Source of the DNA: Escherichia phage RB43
Length of the DNA stretch: 64,000 nucleotides
Reading direction: 5' to 3' (one strand)
Sequence record: NC_007023.1
Positions within the stretch are counted from its first letter, which is position 1. Each line of letters opens with the position of its first letter. A model generated the notes under the pieces. That model was not told the origin of the DNA, did no database searches, and saw only the letters and a list, made by a program, of their open reading frames with translations. A program made the position numbers and the translations under genes. This document shows positions 55,783 to 64,000 of this stretch, in pieces.

Positions 55783-57174
55783 ATGAGTAACAACACAATT
55801 AACCACGTAAGCGATGCGTCCGTTTACGTGACTTTTGATCCGGCAGGTACGCAATGGCCCTCGACTTTCGTCAACGTACAGCAAGCATTAGCCTCTATAG
55901 GCCCGTGGGCGCGTACTGATGTTGGTTTGCCTAACGCGGCTCCTGGTATGCGTGGTATTGCTGCTATTGCTACCGAGGCGATGATTGACGCAGGGACAGA
56001 CAACGAAACGATCGTTACTCCTGCATTGCTGGCATATCGTTTACAAAATCCTCATGCGTCACAAACCGTTTGGGGATATACCAAATACGCAACTGATGCG
56101 GAAGCGGTTGATGTCGCAAACGATCTGGTTTCATTAACTCCGCGTTCGATCAATGTGGTTTTCAATACCAGACACGCATCAGAAACCGTGTGGGGTTCTT
56201 CTAAACTGTCAACGACAGCACAGGCAACAGCGGGTACTGATGATACAACCTCAATGACACCATTGAAGGTAAAACAAGCAATCTCTGCTCTGGTTCCGGT
56301 ACAATCCAACGCAACAGAAAGCGCGTTCGGTTTGGTTCAGTTGGCTACGGTTTCAGAAGTCCGCGCGGGTACTATTCGCGACGGTTTCGCAATTTCACCG
56401 TATACGTTTATTCGTCTGAATGCAACAGAAAGCGATCTGGGTATTGTTCGCCTAGCAAGTCAGGCAGAAGTAAACGCAGGAACTGATGATACCAAAGCCG
56501 TTACCCCGTTAAAACTGGCTAACCTTAAAGGCTCCGGTGGTTCTTTCGGTTTGGTTAAATTATCAACAGAAGTAAACGCAGGGCTGGCTAACACTGCTCT
56601 TTCTGCGGGTGCTAACGTAGTACCGAGCAACCGTGACAGCGCTATCACTGGTGGTGCATTGTATCAGGGTTCAGTTGCTGCTGCTAATAAATACCAGACA
56701 CATAGCGATATCGAAGCATCGTTACCGATTGGCTGTATGATGATGGCTGCATTTAACTCCGATTACGGAAACCTGTGTATTGCCAACGGTCGCGGGATGT
56801 ATACATACGAATACCCTGAACTGTTTGCACTTATAGGTTATACGTATGGCGGTAGTGGTAACATTTTCAACCTTCCCGATATGCGAGGCGTGGTTGCTCG
56901 TGGATTTGATGCGGGACGTGGTTTAGACCCAGGTCGCGGTTTTGGTACATACCAGCATCACGAAGTACAGTCACATGAACACCCTCTGCAAATGATCTAT
57001 CAGTCTGGTGGTAACTTACCATCATGGCAGTGTGTTTATGAACTGCGTACTGCGGAGAAAAACGACCAGCAATTATACTGGCCTGATCCTTCACTCAGTA
57101 AAGCAATGGCTGTTGGCGGCAACGAAACGCGAATGAAGAACCTTGCGATCAACTATGTAATTCGAGTACGATAA
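55783..57174 (+). CDS. 12: short tail fibre gp12
   Basis: 463 aa; repetitive fibre region; His-rich C-terminal receptor-binding region. Confidence 0.8.
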   Translation: MSNNTINHVSDASVYVTFDPAGTQWPSTFVNVQQALASIGPWARTDVGLPNAAPGMRGIAAIATEAMIDAGTDNETIVTPALLAYRLQNPHASQTVWGYTKYATDAEAVDVANDLVSLTPRSINVVFNTRHASETVWGSSKLSTTAQATAGTDDTTSMTPLKVKQAISALVPVQSNATESAFGLVQLATVSEVRAGTIRDGFAISPYTFIRLNATESDLGIVRLASQAEVNAGTDDTKAVTPLKLANLKGSGGSFGLVKLSTEVNAGLANTALSAGANVVPSNRDSAITGGALYQGSVAAANKYQTHSDIEASLPIGCMMMAAFNSDYGNLCIANGRGMYTYEYPELFALIGYTYGGSGNIFNLPDMRGVVARGFDAGRGLDPGRGFGTYQHHEVQSHEHPLQMIYQSGGNLPSWQCVYELRTAEKNDQQLYWPDPSLSKAMAVGGNETRMKNLAINYVIRVR

Positions 57175-57186
57175 AGGGGTTAATCC

Positions 57187-59475
57187 ATGATTTCAAAACT
57201 TAACCCGTTACCAAAGATCCCGTTTGTTGATGGTGTCCCTTCGGACACCACACAAACCCCGATCAACTGGATAATTAACGGCGAAACTCTCGATGGTGCT
57301 AAAACCAAAGTCACTAACGAGGGTTCTTTAAACAGGTGCGGTGTTCTGGTACAAAAGAACGCGGTGCAATTAGAAACCAACACCATTACACAGACTGCAA
57401 AAATCAACGAAGTTATCGATCAGGTTAACCTCATTAGTGAAAACCTCGCGGCTATTTCTGATGAAAGCGTGATTGACAAACTGGATCAGGTTGTTGCTGA
57501 TGTAGAAGTGTTGAAAGTTGATATGACTGCGGTTCAAGGTTCTACTGCAAGCAATACCCTGAAAATCCAGGATCTCGATAAAGAGATCGGGACGTGGGAC
57601 GCTTCAACAGATCCTAAACACCGTACCATTCGAAAAGATATTATTTTCCTGAAAGGGGAAATGGGTGCGTACCCTGGGTTTAACGAAAACGGCGACGTAG
57701 ATCCGACATCAACGGGTTCCGGCATGAAATACAAAATCATGACGAACGCGCAAGCGATTTCGATTCATGAAGGACGTATTACGCGCCTTGAAGATGATTG
57801 GGCTAACTCAGACGTAGGTCATTTAACTGATGAAGTAACCGATCTGCGTAACGAAATGGGGCCAAAACATTTAGCGACATTTGAATCTGTATATGTTCGC
57901 CTGAACACTATCGGTACTGAGATCACTGGTATCAATTCCGAACTAACCAGCATCAACCAATATATCGGTCGTACTGGCACGGGTGGAACTGGTAGTATTT
58001 CTGCGCGTATGACTACGGCAGAATCGAATATCGCAACCCTGCAAACGCAGATGAATGATTCTGCTACTGGTGTATTACCTCGCGTAATTTCTTTGGAAAA
58101 TGCTGTCGGTAACTCTCAGATCCCTGGTAGTATTCGTTACGACATCAGCGCAATCAAACGTGACATCGGTGATATCAACATGATCGTCGGTGAATCAAGC
58201 GATGATGGTCTTCGTGGGGAAATGGCTCAGGTTATGACCGATATCGGTACTGATTCACAGCCTACGAGCATCAAAGGCCGTTTGCTGAACGTTGAGAACA
58301 CCCAACGTGACGATCATCAGAAACTGATTGACGTTGAATCTGTTGTTGGTAATACTTCAAGTGGACTCGTTGCGGCTAATATCGCGATGGGTAAAGCTGT
58401 TTACGGTGATGCAACGAGTTCTGATCCATTCCTGAAAGACGGTATTCAGAAAACAGCGCGTGACAGTAAAGCGGCTATCGGTGTAAACACAACCGGATCT
58501 GAAACAGGGATCTATAAACTGATTTCGGATTTGACTGCTCGTGTTGCTGCACTTGAAAGCGGTACTGGTGGCGAACTTGAACAACGTGTTTCTGATTTGG
58601 AAACCAATAAAGCATCGCATCAGGACGTTGCAAACGCATTGGTTCCGTATATTACCGAAGCGGAAGCAGATGTTAAGTACGAACCGAAGAAAATTCCGTT
58701 ATCGTTTACGCAAAACCTTGTTGGGCGTGGCGATTATATCGAAGGTGATGACATTTCTTTCATGGTTACGGTAACAGGTGGTAAACTGCCTTATGTCTAC
58801 CAGTGGAAGAAAGGAACCGCTGATGTAGGTACTAACGCATCGAGCATTCTGATCCAAAGCATTACCTCTGCCGACGCTGGCGTGTATAAAGTTGTTGTTA
58901 CCGATGCAGACAACACCGTAATTACTTCTGACGAAGTGACGGTTGCTGTTTATCCGGTTCCTCAGTTTGATACTAACCTGGCTGACAAATCGGTGGTTGA
59001 CGGTGATCCTCTGACTCTGGAAGTTGTATACAGCGGTGGTAAACCTCCGTACACTTACGAATGGTTCAAAGATAACTCTGTTATCTCTGGGGAAACATCA
59101 GCAACATTTACCAAATCTGCTGTTACAAGCGCTGATGCTGGTGAATACTATGTTTCTGTAACTGACGCAATGAACAACCAAAACGATTCAGTGAAAGCAA
59201 CCGTGACTGTAACACCTCGTCCGGCTCTTGCATTCACTACGGATCTGAGTGCTACTAAATCATACAGCACAGGTGCTAACATGGATCTTGCTGTTGTCGT
59301 GACTGGTGGTAAAACACCATATACGTATAAATGGTTTAAAGACACTGCGGAAATTTCCGGTCAGACAGGTGCAAGCCTTACCACTGTAGCAGAAGATGGG
59401 GTGTATAAAGTCGAAGTGACGGATGCACTAACGACTAAAATCACATCAACTGAATGCACGGTAACTGTGGCATAA
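57187..59475 (+). CDS. wac: fibritin (wac) with C-terminal tandem Ig-like domains
   Basis: N-terminus LNPLPKIPFVDGVPSD...INWIINGETLDGA matches recalled T4 fibritin; C-terminal ~90-aa repeats (GGKLPYVYQWKKG, PYTYEWFKD, PYTYKWFKD). Confidence 0.8.
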   Translation: MISKLNPLPKIPFVDGVPSDTTQTPINWIINGETLDGAKTKVTNEGSLNRCGVLVQKNAVQLETNTITQTAKINEVIDQVNLISENLAAISDESVIDKLDQVVADVEVLKVDMTAVQGSTASNTLKIQDLDKEIGTWDASTDPKHRTIRKDIIFLKGEMGAYPGFNENGDVDPTSTGSGMKYKIMTNAQAISIHEGRITRLEDDWANSDVGHLTDEVTDLRNEMGPKHLATFESVYVRLNTIGTEITGINSELTSINQYIGRTGTGGTGSISARMTTAESNIATLQTQMNDSATGVLPRVISLENAVGNSQIPGSIRYDISAIKRDIGDINMIVGESSDDGLRGEMAQVMTDIGTDSQPTSIKGRLLNVENTQRDDHQKLIDVESVVGNTSSGLVAANIAMGKAVYGDATSSDPFLKDGIQKTARDSKAAIGVNTTGSETGIYKLISDLTARVAALESGTGGELEQRVSDLETNKASHQDVANALVPYITEAEADVKYEPKKIPLSFTQNLVGRGDYIEGDDISFMVTVTGGKLPYVYQWKKGTADVGTNASSILIQSITSADAGVYKVVVTDADNTVITSDEVTVAVYPVPQFDTNLADKSVVDGDPLTLEVVYSGGKPPYTYEWFKDNSVISGETSATFTKSAVTSADAGEYYVSVTDAMNNQNDSVKATVTVTPRPALAFTTDLSATKSYSTGANMDLAVVVTGGKTPYTYKWFKDTAEISGQTGASLTTVAEDGVYKVEVTDALTTKITSTECTVTVA

Positions 59476-59476
59476 T

Positions 59477-59502
59477 TTAACAAGGGGCGCAAGCCCCTTT
59501 TG
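59477..59502 (+). terminator. rho-independent terminator after wac
   Basis: aaggggcgcaagccccttttg. Confidence 0.55.
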
Positions 59503-59510
59503 AGGATCAT

Positions 59511-60434
59511 ATGATTACGAACAATCCTGAACAATTGAAGGATGAAATTCTTCGTCGTCTGGGCGCACCAATCATCAAAATCGAAATCACACAAGACCAG
59601 ATTTACGATTGCATTCAACGCGCACTGGATCTGTATGCGGAATATCACTACAACGGAACAAACAAAAGTTACATTATCCTTACGTTAGGCGAAGACAACC
59701 CGCGAAACGTATTTGATTTGAGTAAAGAACATATTTTCGCGGTTACAAAAGTATTGCGTACAAATATCGGTTCATTGGTTTCTATGGACGGTACAGCGGT
59801 TTATCCGTGGTTTACTGATTTCCTGATGGGGCTTACTGGTGGTTCTCTGGGCGGTCGCTGTGCATCAAGCGTGTACGGTATGAATGCATATGGCGCGGAT
59901 CTGGGGTATTTTACACAGATGATGTCATATCAACGTTCAATGCAAGAGTTGCTGGCTCCATTACCTGATTACTGGTACAACGATGACACTGGTCAGTTTT
60001 GTGTATGGGGTAAAGTCAACAACGGTGATATTATTGTCATTGAAGTGATGGTAAGATCCTTTGTCGATGTTCCTAGTGCCGTAGGAAGCGTTGCAGGATA
60101 CGCTACAGCGGGTTCTAACGCAGTAGAAGACCAATCCATAGCCGACATCTACGATAACCCGTATAACGCGGTTGTGGGCGGTGTACGAGCGGGACAGGGT
60201 ACAACTGTTACTGGTGGAACCTCTGCATATAACAACCGTTGGGTAAAAGACTACTCAACCGCGCTGGTAAAAGAAATCAACGGGCAAATTCTGGCTAAGT
60301 TTCAGGGTATGCAATTGCCTGGTGGTGTTGCTCCAGATGGAACACGACTGATTCAGGAAGCGGAAACCAAATTACAAGGATTGCGCGACGAACTGATTTC
60401 TATGTCTGACGCAGTTCCTATTATTATGGTGTAG
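59511..60434 (+). CDS. 13: neck protein gp13
   Basis: 307 aa (T4 309); synteny. Confidence 0.8.
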   Translation: MITNNPEQLKDEILRRLGAPIIKIEITQDQIYDCIQRALDLYAEYHYNGTNKSYIILTLGEDNPRNVFDLSKEHIFAVTKVLRTNIGSLVSMDGTAVYPWFTDFLMGLTGGSLGGRCASSVYGMNAYGADLGYFTQMMSYQRSMQELLAPLPDYWYNDDTGQFCVWGKVNNGDIIVIEVMVRSFVDVPSAVGSVAGYATAGSNAVEDQSIADIYDNPYNAVVGGVRAGQGTTVTGGTSAYNNRWVKDYSTALVKEINGQILAKFQGMQLPGGVAPDGTRLIQEAETKLQGLRDELISMSDAVPIIMV

Positions 60435-60442
60435 GGGGAATA

Positions 60443-61189
60443 ATGCAAAACTGGGATGAAAGTTTATTCGCTCAGTTGTCAACGGGGGAGGGAGTCGATC
60501 GCAACTTAAAGGATCAAGTCACTAACCCGTATGTAAACTGGTACAAATATAACCCAACACAACAGCTACATGATTCACTTACAGCAGAATCAATCCAGAT
60601 GAAATCACCTGATATGTATTATGTCAGACGTGAATTTGTGAATATAGATAAAATTCTGGGTGAAGACCGAGAGTCTAAATTCACGAAATCGTGGAAGATC
60701 GCTGCATATATTGAATCATATGCTAACTATGAAGGACAGCGGGACTTCTTTAGCAAATTCGGGTTGAGTTCTAACGACGAAATGACGCTGGTACTAAATC
60801 CGCGTTTATTTGCACATCAAACTGATGGTGGTATTCCGGTGCTGGGGGATTTGGTTTATTTCCCAATGGATAACAGCTTGTTTGAAATTACATGGGTGGA
60901 AGCAGATCCGTTCTATCAGTTCGGTGATCGTCCTCAACGTAAAATCAACCTGGCTAAATTCATCTACACGGGCGAAGAATTGGCTCCTGAATTGCAGCGA
61001 AACGAAGGAATCCATATCGAACCTGATGCAGAACTGGATCTTGAACCTATTCGAAATCTTGACGGGCTGGCAGATATTAACATTGAACAGTACGAAGAAG
61101 ACAAAGAATTTGAAAGAGAAGGTGACGAGTTTATCGAATCTTTTGATGTTGTCAACGGTCGCGGTTCTCCGTTTGCTACACTGCCCTAA
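60443..61189 (+). CDS. 14: neck protein gp14
   Basis: 248 aa (T4 256); synteny. Confidence 0.8.
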   Translation: MQNWDESLFAQLSTGEGVDRNLKDQVTNPYVNWYKYNPTQQLHDSLTAESIQMKSPDMYYVRREFVNIDKILGEDRESKFTKSWKIAAYIESYANYEGQRDFFSKFGLSSNDEMTLVLNPRLFAHQTDGGIPVLGDLVYFPMDNSLFEITWVEADPFYQFGDRPQRKINLAKFIYTGEELAPELQRNEGIHIEPDAELDLEPIRNLDGLADINIEQYEEDKEFEREGDEFIESFDVVNGRGSPFATLP

Positions 61190-61261
61190 ATACAAATAGG
61201 GGAAACCCTATATATGTTGGGGTGTATGGTGAAAACCTGCACCCGATTCAAAGAGGATCTT

Positions 61262-61876
61262 ATGATATACACAAAACTTAAAGAATGGTTGCCTCATGAT
61301 CTATACGTTGAGTATGTTGATATCATAACGGCTTCACCAAAAACAGAATACACAGAAAAACATCATATATTACCACGATCGCTATTTCCTGAATTTGAAA
61401 ACGACCCAGACAACTTAGTAGAACTTGATGTGATGAAGCATTTGATGGCTCATAGGACATTAGCAAAAACCAATGACCATAAAATGATTCTCGCGTTTTT
61501 CATGATGTTCACCTACGAACATAAACGTTATTCTACATTGTCAGAACAGGAACAACAATTTATTCTTGAAGAAAAGACAAAAGCCCGTGAAGCAATGCGT
61601 GTTGTTAAAAAAGAACAGATGAAAGGTAAATATGATGGTGAAAACAACCCATTTTACGGAAAACGACATACTGATGAATTTAAGAAAATGATGGGTTCTG
61701 TGCATAAAGGTAAGAAGTTATCACCAGAACATTTAGCAAATCTCGTTGCCGCACACAAAGGCAAAAAACGAGAAAAAGTAAAATGCCCCCATTGTGGGAT
61801 AATGTGCGCCGCTAATACAGCAAAGCGCTGGCACTTCGATAACTGTAAGTCTGGACTTGTCCAGCAGGGGGATTAG
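61262..61876 (+). CDS. free-standing HNH homing endonuclease with C-terminal NUMOD-like repeats, inserted between gp14 and gp15
   Basis: HNH core TEKHHILPRSLFPEF...DNLVELDVMKHLMAH; repeated NPFYGKRHTDEFKKMMGSVHKGKKLSPEHLANL; Zn CPHCG...C. Confidence 0.8.
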   Translation: MIYTKLKEWLPHDLYVEYVDIITASPKTEYTEKHHILPRSLFPEFENDPDNLVELDVMKHLMAHRTLAKTNDHKMILAFFMMFTYEHKRYSTLSEQEQQFILEEKTKAREAMRVVKKEQMKGKYDGENNPFYGKRHTDEFKKMMGSVHKGKKLSPEHLANLVAAHKGKKREKVKCPHCGIMCAANTAKRWHFDNCKSGLVQQGD

Positions 61877-61927
61877 AAAATTTTCGGATATTGGTATAAT
61901 AGTTCGCTGCGTAACTATATCGTTCTT

Positions 61928-62703
61928 ATGGGACAATTGTTTAACCATGTTCAAGTTAAACGAGTGCGTGGCGAACAAGAAAAATTCATTAAGGTTCCGA
62001 TTACCTATGCTTCAAAAGAGAAGTTTCTCGCTTCCATGAACAAACTCAACTACACGTTGAGTCAGGAAAACGTAGCGAAAACGGAAACCATTTTACCGCG
62101 AATGAATCTATCACTGGTGGACCTGCAATATAACGCAATTCGTAAAACCAGTATCGCGGTTAACCAGAAAATGTCGCAGTTACAAGCACCGCGTAAAACG
62201 ATCACACAGTTTAACCCTGTGCCATATCGTCTAATCTTTGAACTGGGTGTGTACACTCGTTACGAAGACGATATGTTTCAGATCGCAGAACAGATTTTGC
62301 CTTATTTTCAACCGCATTTCAACTGCAAGATTACCGAACTGCATAAGAACGAAATCAAAGTTGACCGAGACATCAAAATTAGTCTCCAATCGGTTGCACC
62401 AGATACAACGTTTGAAGGTGATGTTACCCAGCGCCGACACGTTGAATGGTCTTTCATGTTTGAATTACAGGGTTATCTGTACCCGCCTGTGACTGATGTC
62501 AAAGGTGAAATCAGAACAGTATACACGGATTTCTTTGCAAATATGAACCCACTGGACAAGGATAACTTTGAATCAGTGGACAGTCAAGCAGATCCGGTTG
62601 ATTTACCGCTTCAAGATTATACAGGCGAAGAATACATTCAGACTTATTCGCGCAACACGCCGATCCCGTCTGGTGATGAACCTCCGAAGCCGAGGGGAAC
62701 ATA

Positions 62704-62704
<1 letters not shown>
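61928..62704 (+). CDS. 15: tail sheath stabiliser and completion protein gp15
   Basis: ETILPRMNLSLVDLQYNA...YTRYEDDMFQIAEQILPYFQPHFN matches recalled T4 gp15. Confidence 0.9.

Positions 62705-64000
<1,296 letters not shown>

Follow-up and report, generated by a model that had tools for sequence, protein, structure and literature searches.

Between neck gene 14 and gene 15 of Escherichia phage RB43 (record NC_007023.1; the stretch of 64,000 nucleotides (nt) analysed here is called the window) lies a reading frame at positions 61262-61876, which we refer to as mob. We consider it probable that mob is a free-standing Mob-type HNH gene of a lineage belonging to the 14/15 junction, and that it has taken over the start of gene 15. 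The boundaries of the cassette and the ATT that stands at codon 1 of gene 15 were read directly from sequence comparison. The mob cassette (61249-61882, with a left edge that is ambiguous within 61249-61253) stands in place of about 24 nt of native leader, which in phage CfP1 reads aaacccatacaggaaaataaaATG. Empty sites continue as ...cccatacAGGAaaataaaATG TTT GGA TAT TGG..., coding for MFGYWYNSS, and RB43 reads ...CAG CAG GGG GAT TAG AAA ATT TTC GGA TAT TGG..., the native Shine-Dalgarno (SD) sequence and ATG of gene 15 being gone. Codon 1 of RB43 gene 15 is thus an ATT three bases after the mob stop, and an SD sequence, AGGGGG, is located in the last codons of mob, 8 nt upstream. A previous interpretation made from the letters of this DNA alone (the sequence-only reading) had described the gene as inserted between genes 14 and 15. 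The location holds, but insertion alone is not an adequate description, since the ribosome-binding site and the ATG of gene 15 were removed as well.

In three types of junction with mob or a mob remnant, all 18 distinct junctions have ATT at codon 1 of gene 15; the RB43 type accounts for 11 of them, the ZZ1/Acj9 type for 4, and the KP182/phiR1-RT/F48 type for 3. Within the RB43 clade, codon 1 was ATT at 9/9 junctions with mob or a remnant, ATG at 8/8 empty junctions, and TTG at 3/3 junctions occupied by another endonuclease (the RB16 type, described below), where the TTG follows two bases after the endonuclease stop. A scan of viral contigs with the 5' sequence of gene 15 returned 20 ATG loci with a measurable spacer, all of 22-80 nt (one more ATG locus was too short for spacer measurement), three ATT loci with mob, one ATT locus without mob that nevertheless has a mob-type leader (L131), and RB16 and Lw1 with TTG and the other endonuclease. 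A scan of metagenomes for the ATT allele gave two true matches, both with mob. The junction reads AAGGAGAAT(T/C)AAA-ATT in the lineage of ZZ1, Henu6, and Acj9, and TAATGGGGGTGGTTT-ATT in the lineage of KP182, phiR1-RT, and F48. For the RB43 type, the 21 nt CAGCAGGGGGATTAGAAAATT (61862-61882) were identical in 10/10 cassettes, one of which has a mob that is only 73% identical. A strong SD is present in every ATT lineage, and the SD of empty sites is only AGGA.

Several junctions show further peculiarities. At L131 (IMGVR_UViG_2974769608_000001, reverse strand, around 200-250) the gp14-gp15 spacer measures about 40 nt and contains no mob, codon 1 is ATT, and the leader tgatgggggtgggttATT is of the type seen at the KP182/phiR1-RT/F48 mob junction; this locus looks like the footprint of a lost mob and is a possible "resistant empty site". 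Three T4-like contigs (L139:4788, L140:9590, and L124:61) have a gene 15 TTG behind GGAGGTGAA(C/A)T. The spacer of L139 and L140 is 54-55 nt long and holds no inserted gene, so that a non-ATG start also occurs without an occupant, and the upstream sequence of L124 is too short to tell. In KP182, phiR1-RT, and F48 (L102:2585-2610, L103, and L144) an ATG that is not in the frame of gene 15 overlaps the mob stop (TAATG). From this ATG an open reading frame (ORF) extends over the first gene 15 codons, with 15 codons in F48 and phiR1-RT and 10 codons in KP182; compared with vB_EcoM_005 (TAATG-TTCGG), these junctions have 13 extra bases, GGGGTGGTTTATT. The mob gene of Acj9 (L146:1507-2109) does not have the stop of ZZ1 and reads on through the first gene 15 codons for about 20 codons in a different frame; with an ATT start of gene 15, this would give an overlap between mob and gene 15.

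Taken on its sequence, gp15 is likely to start at the AUU at 61880 and not at the annotated internal ATG at 61928, which encodes Met17. In RB43 an in-frame stop lies one codon before the ATT, and no upstream in-frame start is therefore possible for the conserved N-terminus. The ATT occupies codon 1 with a functional SD spacing, and no canonical in-frame start is found up to the conserved N-terminus. Translation from 61880 aligns with residues 1-271 of T4 gp15 (PDB 3j2m/4hud), from residue 1 onwards, and the RB43 segment upstream of Met17 includes R11, a residue that in T4 gp15 forms a salt bridge with E227 of gp14 at the neck-tail joint (PMC12929629). The local RNA at the ATT is unstructured and folds less stably than shuffled controls (z = +1.73). 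At an infC-like junction of stop, 3 nt, and AUU, expression from AUU was about one quarter of that from AUG, and de novo initiation had about the same share in it as reinitiation (PMC3592434). Gp15 is an essential tail-completion protein that is present as one hexamer per virion in T4 (PMC12929629), and with six copies per virion a weak start is plausible. We also considered an obligatory translational coupling of gp15 to mob, and rejected it: the ATT is kept in RB43-GVA, where the mob stop lies 69 nt upstream, in KLB21, which has a frameshift in mob, and in L131, which has no mob (these are isolate genomes or complete contigs). Initiation would thus not strictly depend on termination at the mob stop.

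It is quite improbable, in our judgment, that gene 15 of mob-bearing phages starts at the ATG at 61928 and that the 16 codons upstream are an untranslated relic. This ATG is the only canonical in-frame start, the records of Miller, Taquito, Dev_CS701, KLB25, KKP_3664, Acj9, and phiR1-RT have gene 15 begin there, and the relic codons may be young because the flanks recombine often. However, no purine-rich SD precedes it, the codon at this position is Leu in KP182, and the strong SD before the ATT is invariant. In addition, the 16 codons contain no stop or frameshift at any of the 18 ATT junctions, though mob itself decayed four times, and they match residues 1-17 of T4 gp15, including the gp14-contacting R11. 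In none of the annotated records with mob that were examined does gene 15 begin at the ATT. Most use an internal ATG, the KP182 annotation has an internal TTG, and that of Henu6 an upstream ATG; gene 15 is annotated about 16 codons late in at least 12 of the records examined, and about 17 codons early in one. A Mob-gp15 fusion protein arising from TAG read-through is extremely improbable as the form in which gp15 is made. The two genes share a frame in RB43, KP182, phiR1-RT, and F48, where a single stop codon and one to four sense codons separate mob from the ATT, but the frames differ in ZZ1, Henu6, Acj9, EcoM_005, and MY742, the stop is TAA in KP182, phiR1-RT, and F48, and RB43-GVA, KLB21, and Fraggle are viable with a truncated mob. 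Since frames and stop codons thus differ by lineage, and since a search of the window found no tRNA gene, and with it no suppressor tRNA, this candidate was rejected.

That 61262-61876 is a Mob-type homing endonuclease gene is close to certain. The plus-strand ORF spans 61214-61876 and has ATG 61262 as an alternative start in the ORF listing; this ATG is the sole start conserved among relatives, which makes 61262-61876 the correct extent. The protein matches PHROG 655, "homing endonuclease" (1.1e-46), and Pfam NUMOD3 (PF07460; 1.5e-6, 28.4 bits against a cut-off of 20.4, residues 125-144), with a second NUMOD3 stretch also counted. In a family alignment of 48 sequences, H34, H35, P38, N51, H60, and H64 were invariant, and C175, C178, H191, and C195 were conserved in at least 90% of the aligned homologues. 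The family profile matched solved HNH domains (group II intron maturase 6me0, 2.6e-5; McrA 6ghc, 2.2e-4; and also Cas8f-HNH), and a search of solved structures with the mob protein as a single sequence gave nothing significant. T4 MobE was related to the HNH domain of mob both by BLASTP (43% identity over 70 amino acids (aa), E = 1e-13) and by hhalign with the family profile (probability 99.9%, E = 9e-33).

The AlphaFold (AF2) model of the protein (predicted local distance difference test score, pLDDT, 90.6) places the HNH motif on a strand (31-35), a second strand (52-56), and a helix (57-68), followed by a long linker helix and by two short helices over the NUMOD3 region. The residues that define the HNH superfamily (His-His, Asn, and a distal His/Asn on a beta-beta-alpha core) are all in place. 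The NUMOD3 region shows a weak sequence and fold likeness to the I-TevI DNA-binding domain 1i3j, with all scores marginal. At the C-terminus the CPHC...H...C motif is modeled as a beta-hairpin (172-183) and a helix (184-194); the two CxxC knuckles on two beta-hairpins of a zinc ribbon are not found, as CxxC...H...C lies on one hairpin plus a helix, and this module is better described as CCHC finger-like, with predicted zinc binding. Introns or other RNA families were not found within 60400-62800, and mob is thus free-standing; it is intergenic and oriented like its neighbors. The sequence-only reading had proposed a free-standing HNH homing endonuclease between genes 14 and 15 with NUMOD-like DNA-binding repeats, all of which agrees with these results, and a "Zn ribbon", for which CCHC finger is the better term, with the ligands C175, C178, H191, and C195.

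Among 182 phage records with matching flanks, mob was present at 74% amino-acid identity or more in only 16. The gp14-gp15 spacer is empty, and 58-81 nt long, in CfP1, IME-CF2, Xman, GuL6, phi5, and SemperBestia. In RB16, Lw1, leE, JC03, Cronuts, and others, the same site is occupied by a 241-aa endonuclease that is unrelated to mob and has two CapR-homology domains, a PHROG 681 match, and 36% identity to a T5 protein. This RB16-type endonuclease is 98-100% identical between phages that have a flank identity of about 87%, a pattern suggestive of recent spread. The sequence-only reading had let its proposal of a mobile element stand or fall with presence/absence polymorphism among relatives, and such polymorphism is what we observed, with empty, mob, and other-endonuclease alleles at the same site. 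The mob and RB16-type cassettes, whose proteins are unrelated, share a 5' leader and their first bases, ttcaaagagg-NNN-tt-ATGATAT (61245-61268 versus L003:2213-2239), suggesting that cassettes were swapped behind a common leader; in several relatives the shared leader forms CCTCTtcaaAGAGG, which could sequester the SD.

Orthologues of mob with 46-58% identity were found at the gp14/gp15 position in at least eight phages of several genera, namely Acinetobacter phages ZZ1, Henu6, and Acj9, Escherichia phage vB_EcoM_005, Klebsiella phages KP182 and F48, Yersinia phage phiR1-RT, and Enterobacter phage MY742. The mob lineage specifically occupies the gene 14/gene 15 junction of T4-like phages. The 14-15 intergenic sequences are unrelated between these genera and gene 15 is highly conserved in its first codons, for which reason the conserved 5' end of gene 15 would be the most plausible recognition region. 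A conservation profile of the empty sites begins at the SD and ATG of gene 15; since the pattern used in the search itself imposes part of the conservation over the initial 29 nt, the profile speaks only weakly for a target in gene 15.

Four mob copies were found to be broken, by a nonsense mutation in RB43-GVA, by one-base frameshifts in KLB21 and Henu6, and by an in-frame deletion of 441 nt in Fraggle. In RB43-GVA (L001) a C>A change at 61807 turns Cys182 from TGC into TGA, with loss of the last 23 Mob residues including the zinc ligands H191 and C195. The frameshift of Henu6 is an extra A in mob (L143:1800-1830), and an extra A after SHVQ breaks the gene 15 frame of ZZ1 (L100:2640-2660), which the near-identical Henu6 does not have. 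Both extra A's probably reflect sequencing errors in homopolymers, or else very recent mutations, and they explain the odd annotations of both records; the gene 15 frameshift, which is private to the ZZ1 record, is a probable sequencing error. The intact mob copies have a ratio of nonsynonymous to synonymous divergence (dN/dS) of 0.09-0.11, over a synonymous divergence of up to about 1, and are under purifying selection. The synonymous divergence of mob is consistently slightly below that of gp14 and gp15, and between RB43 and Miller it is zero, the two mob genes being identical, with a gp15 synonymous divergence of 0.35. In the RB43 clade mob seems to be an old resident with occasional transfer and loss. 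RB43 gp13-gp14 are 100% identical to the empty CfP1 over 1.6 kb and 99.9% identical to RB16, and the identity to both drops to 84-93% from the first gene 15 codons onward; on this right flank, Miller and CfP1 are 98.5-100% identical. As similarity breaks exactly there, the 14/15 junction is a recombination breakpoint, which supports the recombination-prone junction that the sequence-only reading had claimed.

Some results do not favor our interpretation and have to be set against it. With regard to the protein, the Pfam HNH model PF01844 scored 11.7 bits (E = 0.29) and so missed its cut-off of 21.4, and fold searches with the whole model, which were uninformative, returned no HNH nuclease match. 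Some members of the mob family do score for PF01844, and the miss reflects the sensitivity of a single-sequence model and is not a contradiction. With regard to the start of gene 15, EcoM_005 and MY742 have mob and yet keep an ATG, which overlaps the mob stop (TAATG and TGATG, respectively), so that ATT is not obligatory for the mob lineage. In a simple context, AUU is 6-8 fold below AUG (PMC3592434). Across codons 2-16 of the mob-bearing genomes about 11 codons vary synonymously and one conservatively, and because recombination with ATG alleles is frequent, and these codons may have come in from such alleles only recently, this conservation is not decisive for translation. With regard to mobility, mob identity (73-100%) mostly tracks flank identity, and much of the history in the RB43 clade therefore looks vertical and not like a recent sweep.

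The following mechanism could account for this arrangement. The mob gene has its own SD, and since no promoter was found we treat it as a promoter-less cassette that would ride the late wac-13-14-15-16 transcript. Scans for Sigma-70 promoters and terminators on the plus strand near mob gave none above chance, and the T4-type late promoter motif WATAAATA does not occur on the plus strand of 56686-64000; without a late promoter after 56686, wac, 13, 14, mob, 15, and 16 may be a single late transcription unit. By analogy with T4 MobE and MobA, Mob would act in a mixed infection on the allele that has no mob, nicking or cleaving it close to the conserved gene 15 5' end, and recombinational repair would then copy mob together with adjacent markers into the recipient genome. 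Such homing and repair would explain both the presence/absence pattern and the similarity break at the junction; the homing activity of mob is what we infer from these analogous systems. The cassette replaced the SD and ATG of gene 15, and ATT is now codon 1 behind AGGGGG, gp15 presumably being initiated at AUU by de novo initiation plus some termination-reinitiation. With the start signals of an essential gene inside the mob 3' end, a clean loss of mob would be harder.

A more speculative idea, which we hold to be unlikely, is that the ATG-to-ATT change is both an immunity mark and a retention device, with Mob recognizing the highly conserved initial codons of gene 15, its ATG included. If it is an immunity mark, the G-to-T change would shield the mob allele from cleavage by Mob and leave room for a low gp15 synthesis; codon 1 of gene 15 could be altered "silently" only by exchange for another initiator. 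The RB16-type endonuclease with its TTG start would then be a parallel case, and L131 (ATT) and L139/L140 (TTG) would represent the "resistant empty site" stage of a homing cycle. If it is a retention device, a clean loss of mob would cripple an essential gene because the compensating strong SD lies in the last codons of mob.

Two other views of the element start from its selection and decay. Mob could be kept for the benefit of the phage, through exclusion of rival markers or through the gene 15 signals, and would then be a domesticated resident instead of a homing parasite. We regard this as somewhat unlikely, although the dN/dS of about 0.1, a divergence roughly parallel to that of the flanks, the position of the gene 15 initiation region within the mob 3' end, and the marker exclusion caused by T4 homing endonucleases (PMC2988022) all speak for it. 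What speaks against it is that mob is found in so few of the 182 related records and that four independent decayed copies occur in viable phages; domestication is, moreover, compatible with homing and not exclusive of it. It is also conceivable, but improbable, that the RB43 copy is an inactive relic, an open frame that no longer cuts DNA. Homing endonuclease genes often degenerate after fixation, and the copies in RB43-GVA, KLB21, Henu6, and Fraggle are visibly broken, but the RB43 copy is full length with every invariant catalytic residue and zinc ligand, it is 100% identical to that of Miller, and the family is under purifying selection. Judging by these sequence features, we lean towards the RB43 mob being still active.

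The features of the region are listed below. The segment 59511-63240 (3.7 kb) of the window matches both RB43 records, HE981739 and HE858210, across its full length, and a base-by-base comparison with HE981739 gave a single mismatch, at 61807. The next closest phage to RB43 is Citrobacter phage Miller (96% identity), both belonging to the genus Pseudotevenvirus. The gene order in the window is wac, gp13, gp14, the mob ORF, gp15 (Pfam T4-gp15_tss, 5.7e-90), gp16, and the start of gp17. The wac product has its Fibritin_C match in the middle of the protein (residues 373-489), and towards the C-terminus come immunoglobulin-like and SprB-type repeats (Pfam Ig_3, 2.6e-20; SprB, 7e-11), an uncommon extension for a whisker protein. 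The gp14 stop is overlapped by CCTAAATA at 61184-61191, and in several relatives by CATAAATA. The retained native spacer contains two hairpins, ATAGGG-GAAA-CCCTAT at 61196-61211 and GGGTG...CACCC at 61220-61244; the inverted repeat was also picked up in a separate scan.

Features at and around the gene 14/gene 15 junction (window positions unless a locus is named)
Feature	Position	Strand	Details
wac (fibritin homologue)	57187-59475		762 aa
gp13 neck protein (head-tail adaptor)	59511-60434	+	PHROG 211, 5.3e-40; gp13 annotation in relatives
gp14 neck protein, left flank of insertion	60443-61189	+	Pfam PF11649 (T4_neck-protein), 6.5e-87
Retained part of native 14-15 spacer	61196-61244	+	Same sequence in empty sites of CfP1, GuL6, phi5
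mob cassette, delimited against empty sites	61249-61882	+	Window and Miller aligned with CfP1, GuL6, phi5
mob SD, AAGAGG	61251-61256	+	5 nt before ATG 61262; position kept in relatives
mob, free-standing Mob-type HNH homing endonuclease gene	61262-61876	+	204 aa; stop TAG 61874-61876
HNH (beta-beta-alpha-metal) nuclease domain	61334-61471	+	Residues ~25-70: H34 H35 P38 N51 H60 H64
Two NUMOD3-type DNA-binding motifs	61634-61756	+	Residues ~125-165; Pfam PF07460
C-terminal CCHC zinc finger (predicted), CPHC...RWHFDNC	61784-61846	+	C175 C178 H191 C195
Proposed gene 15 translation-initiation region, inside mob 3' end	61862-61882	+	SD AGGGGG 61866-61871; mob stop TAG 61874-61876; AAA; ATT 61880-61882
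gp15 (tail terminator/sheath stabilizer), proposed full coding sequence, AUU start	61880-62704	+	274 aa
Internal ATG, Met17 of gp15	61928-61930	+	Start given by ORF finders and most annotations of mob-bearing relatives
gp16 small terminase	62704-63240	+	Pfam PF11053, 1e-44
RB16-type endonuclease gene	L003:2237-2962 (RB16); also L007, L111		Site corresponds to window 61249-61882

The mob element itself is already known and annotated, as relatives carry "MobE" or "homing endonuclease" labels, and the presence of a mob-like ORF in RB43 has been on record since 2006 (PMC1524935). For the ATT start of gene 15, we found no paper describing it in the open-access literature searched. What goes beyond existing annotation is that gene 15 of mob-bearing T4-like phages is almost certainly given a wrong start, because gene callers do not consider ATT, an error with consequences for structural studies and proteomics of the neck-tail joint. 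In addition, a single site offers a natural allelic series (empty/ATG, mob/ATT, mob-decayed/ATT, mob-lost/ATT, and other-endonuclease/TTG), and thereby a compact system for the entanglement of endonuclease genes with the expression of essential host genes and for a possible protection against cleavage by start-codon changes.

In T4 Mob proteins, the HNH domain is coupled to a separate region that binds DNA (PMC2988022). The RB43 mob resembles T4 MobE in its homologous N-terminal HNH domain and in being free-standing, intergenic, co-oriented, apparently promoter-less on the host transcript, and variably present. It differs from MobE in its site (the 14/15 junction versus nrdA/nrdB), in its length (204 aa versus 140 aa, the RB43 protein adding a second NUMOD3 and the CCHC zinc finger), and in taking over the SD and start codon of the downstream gene; target and activity of the RB43 mob are predicted. 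In relatives of T4, mobC and mobE are reported to have given way to SegH and Hef (Sandegren et al., 2005, as cited in PMC2988022). The likeness is that unrelated endonucleases alternate at one intergenic site, here mob and the RB16-type CapR-domain endonuclease, whereas the site and the endonuclease families are different, and at 14/15 each occupant brings a non-ATG start of gene 15 (ATT or TTG).

Promoters of essential downstream genes that are embedded in seg and mob genes favor retention of these elements (PMC2988022). As with T4 segG and gene 32, the expression signals of an essential downstream gene lie within the element, but the embedded signal is a promoter in T4, whereas the RB43 mob embeds a translational signal, an SD with a replaced start codon. 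The RB43 case is a translational counterpart of this embedded-promoter principle of retention. For the start itself, the closest arrangement is that of E. coli thrS-infC (UAA GGU AUU; pcnB is also AUU-initiated), with a stop, three bases, an AUU, and an upstream SD, compared with UAG AAA AUU in RB43. In contrast to infC, RB43 gene 15 is a phage structural gene for which no autoregulatory logic of initiation factor 3 (IF3) is evident, and coupling is not obligatory in mob phages, as the genomes with a truncated mob indicate. The resemblance to I-TevI (1i3j) is weak and confined to a marginal similarity of the NUMOD3 region, and the catalytic domain of I-TevI is of the GIY-YIG and not of the HNH type.

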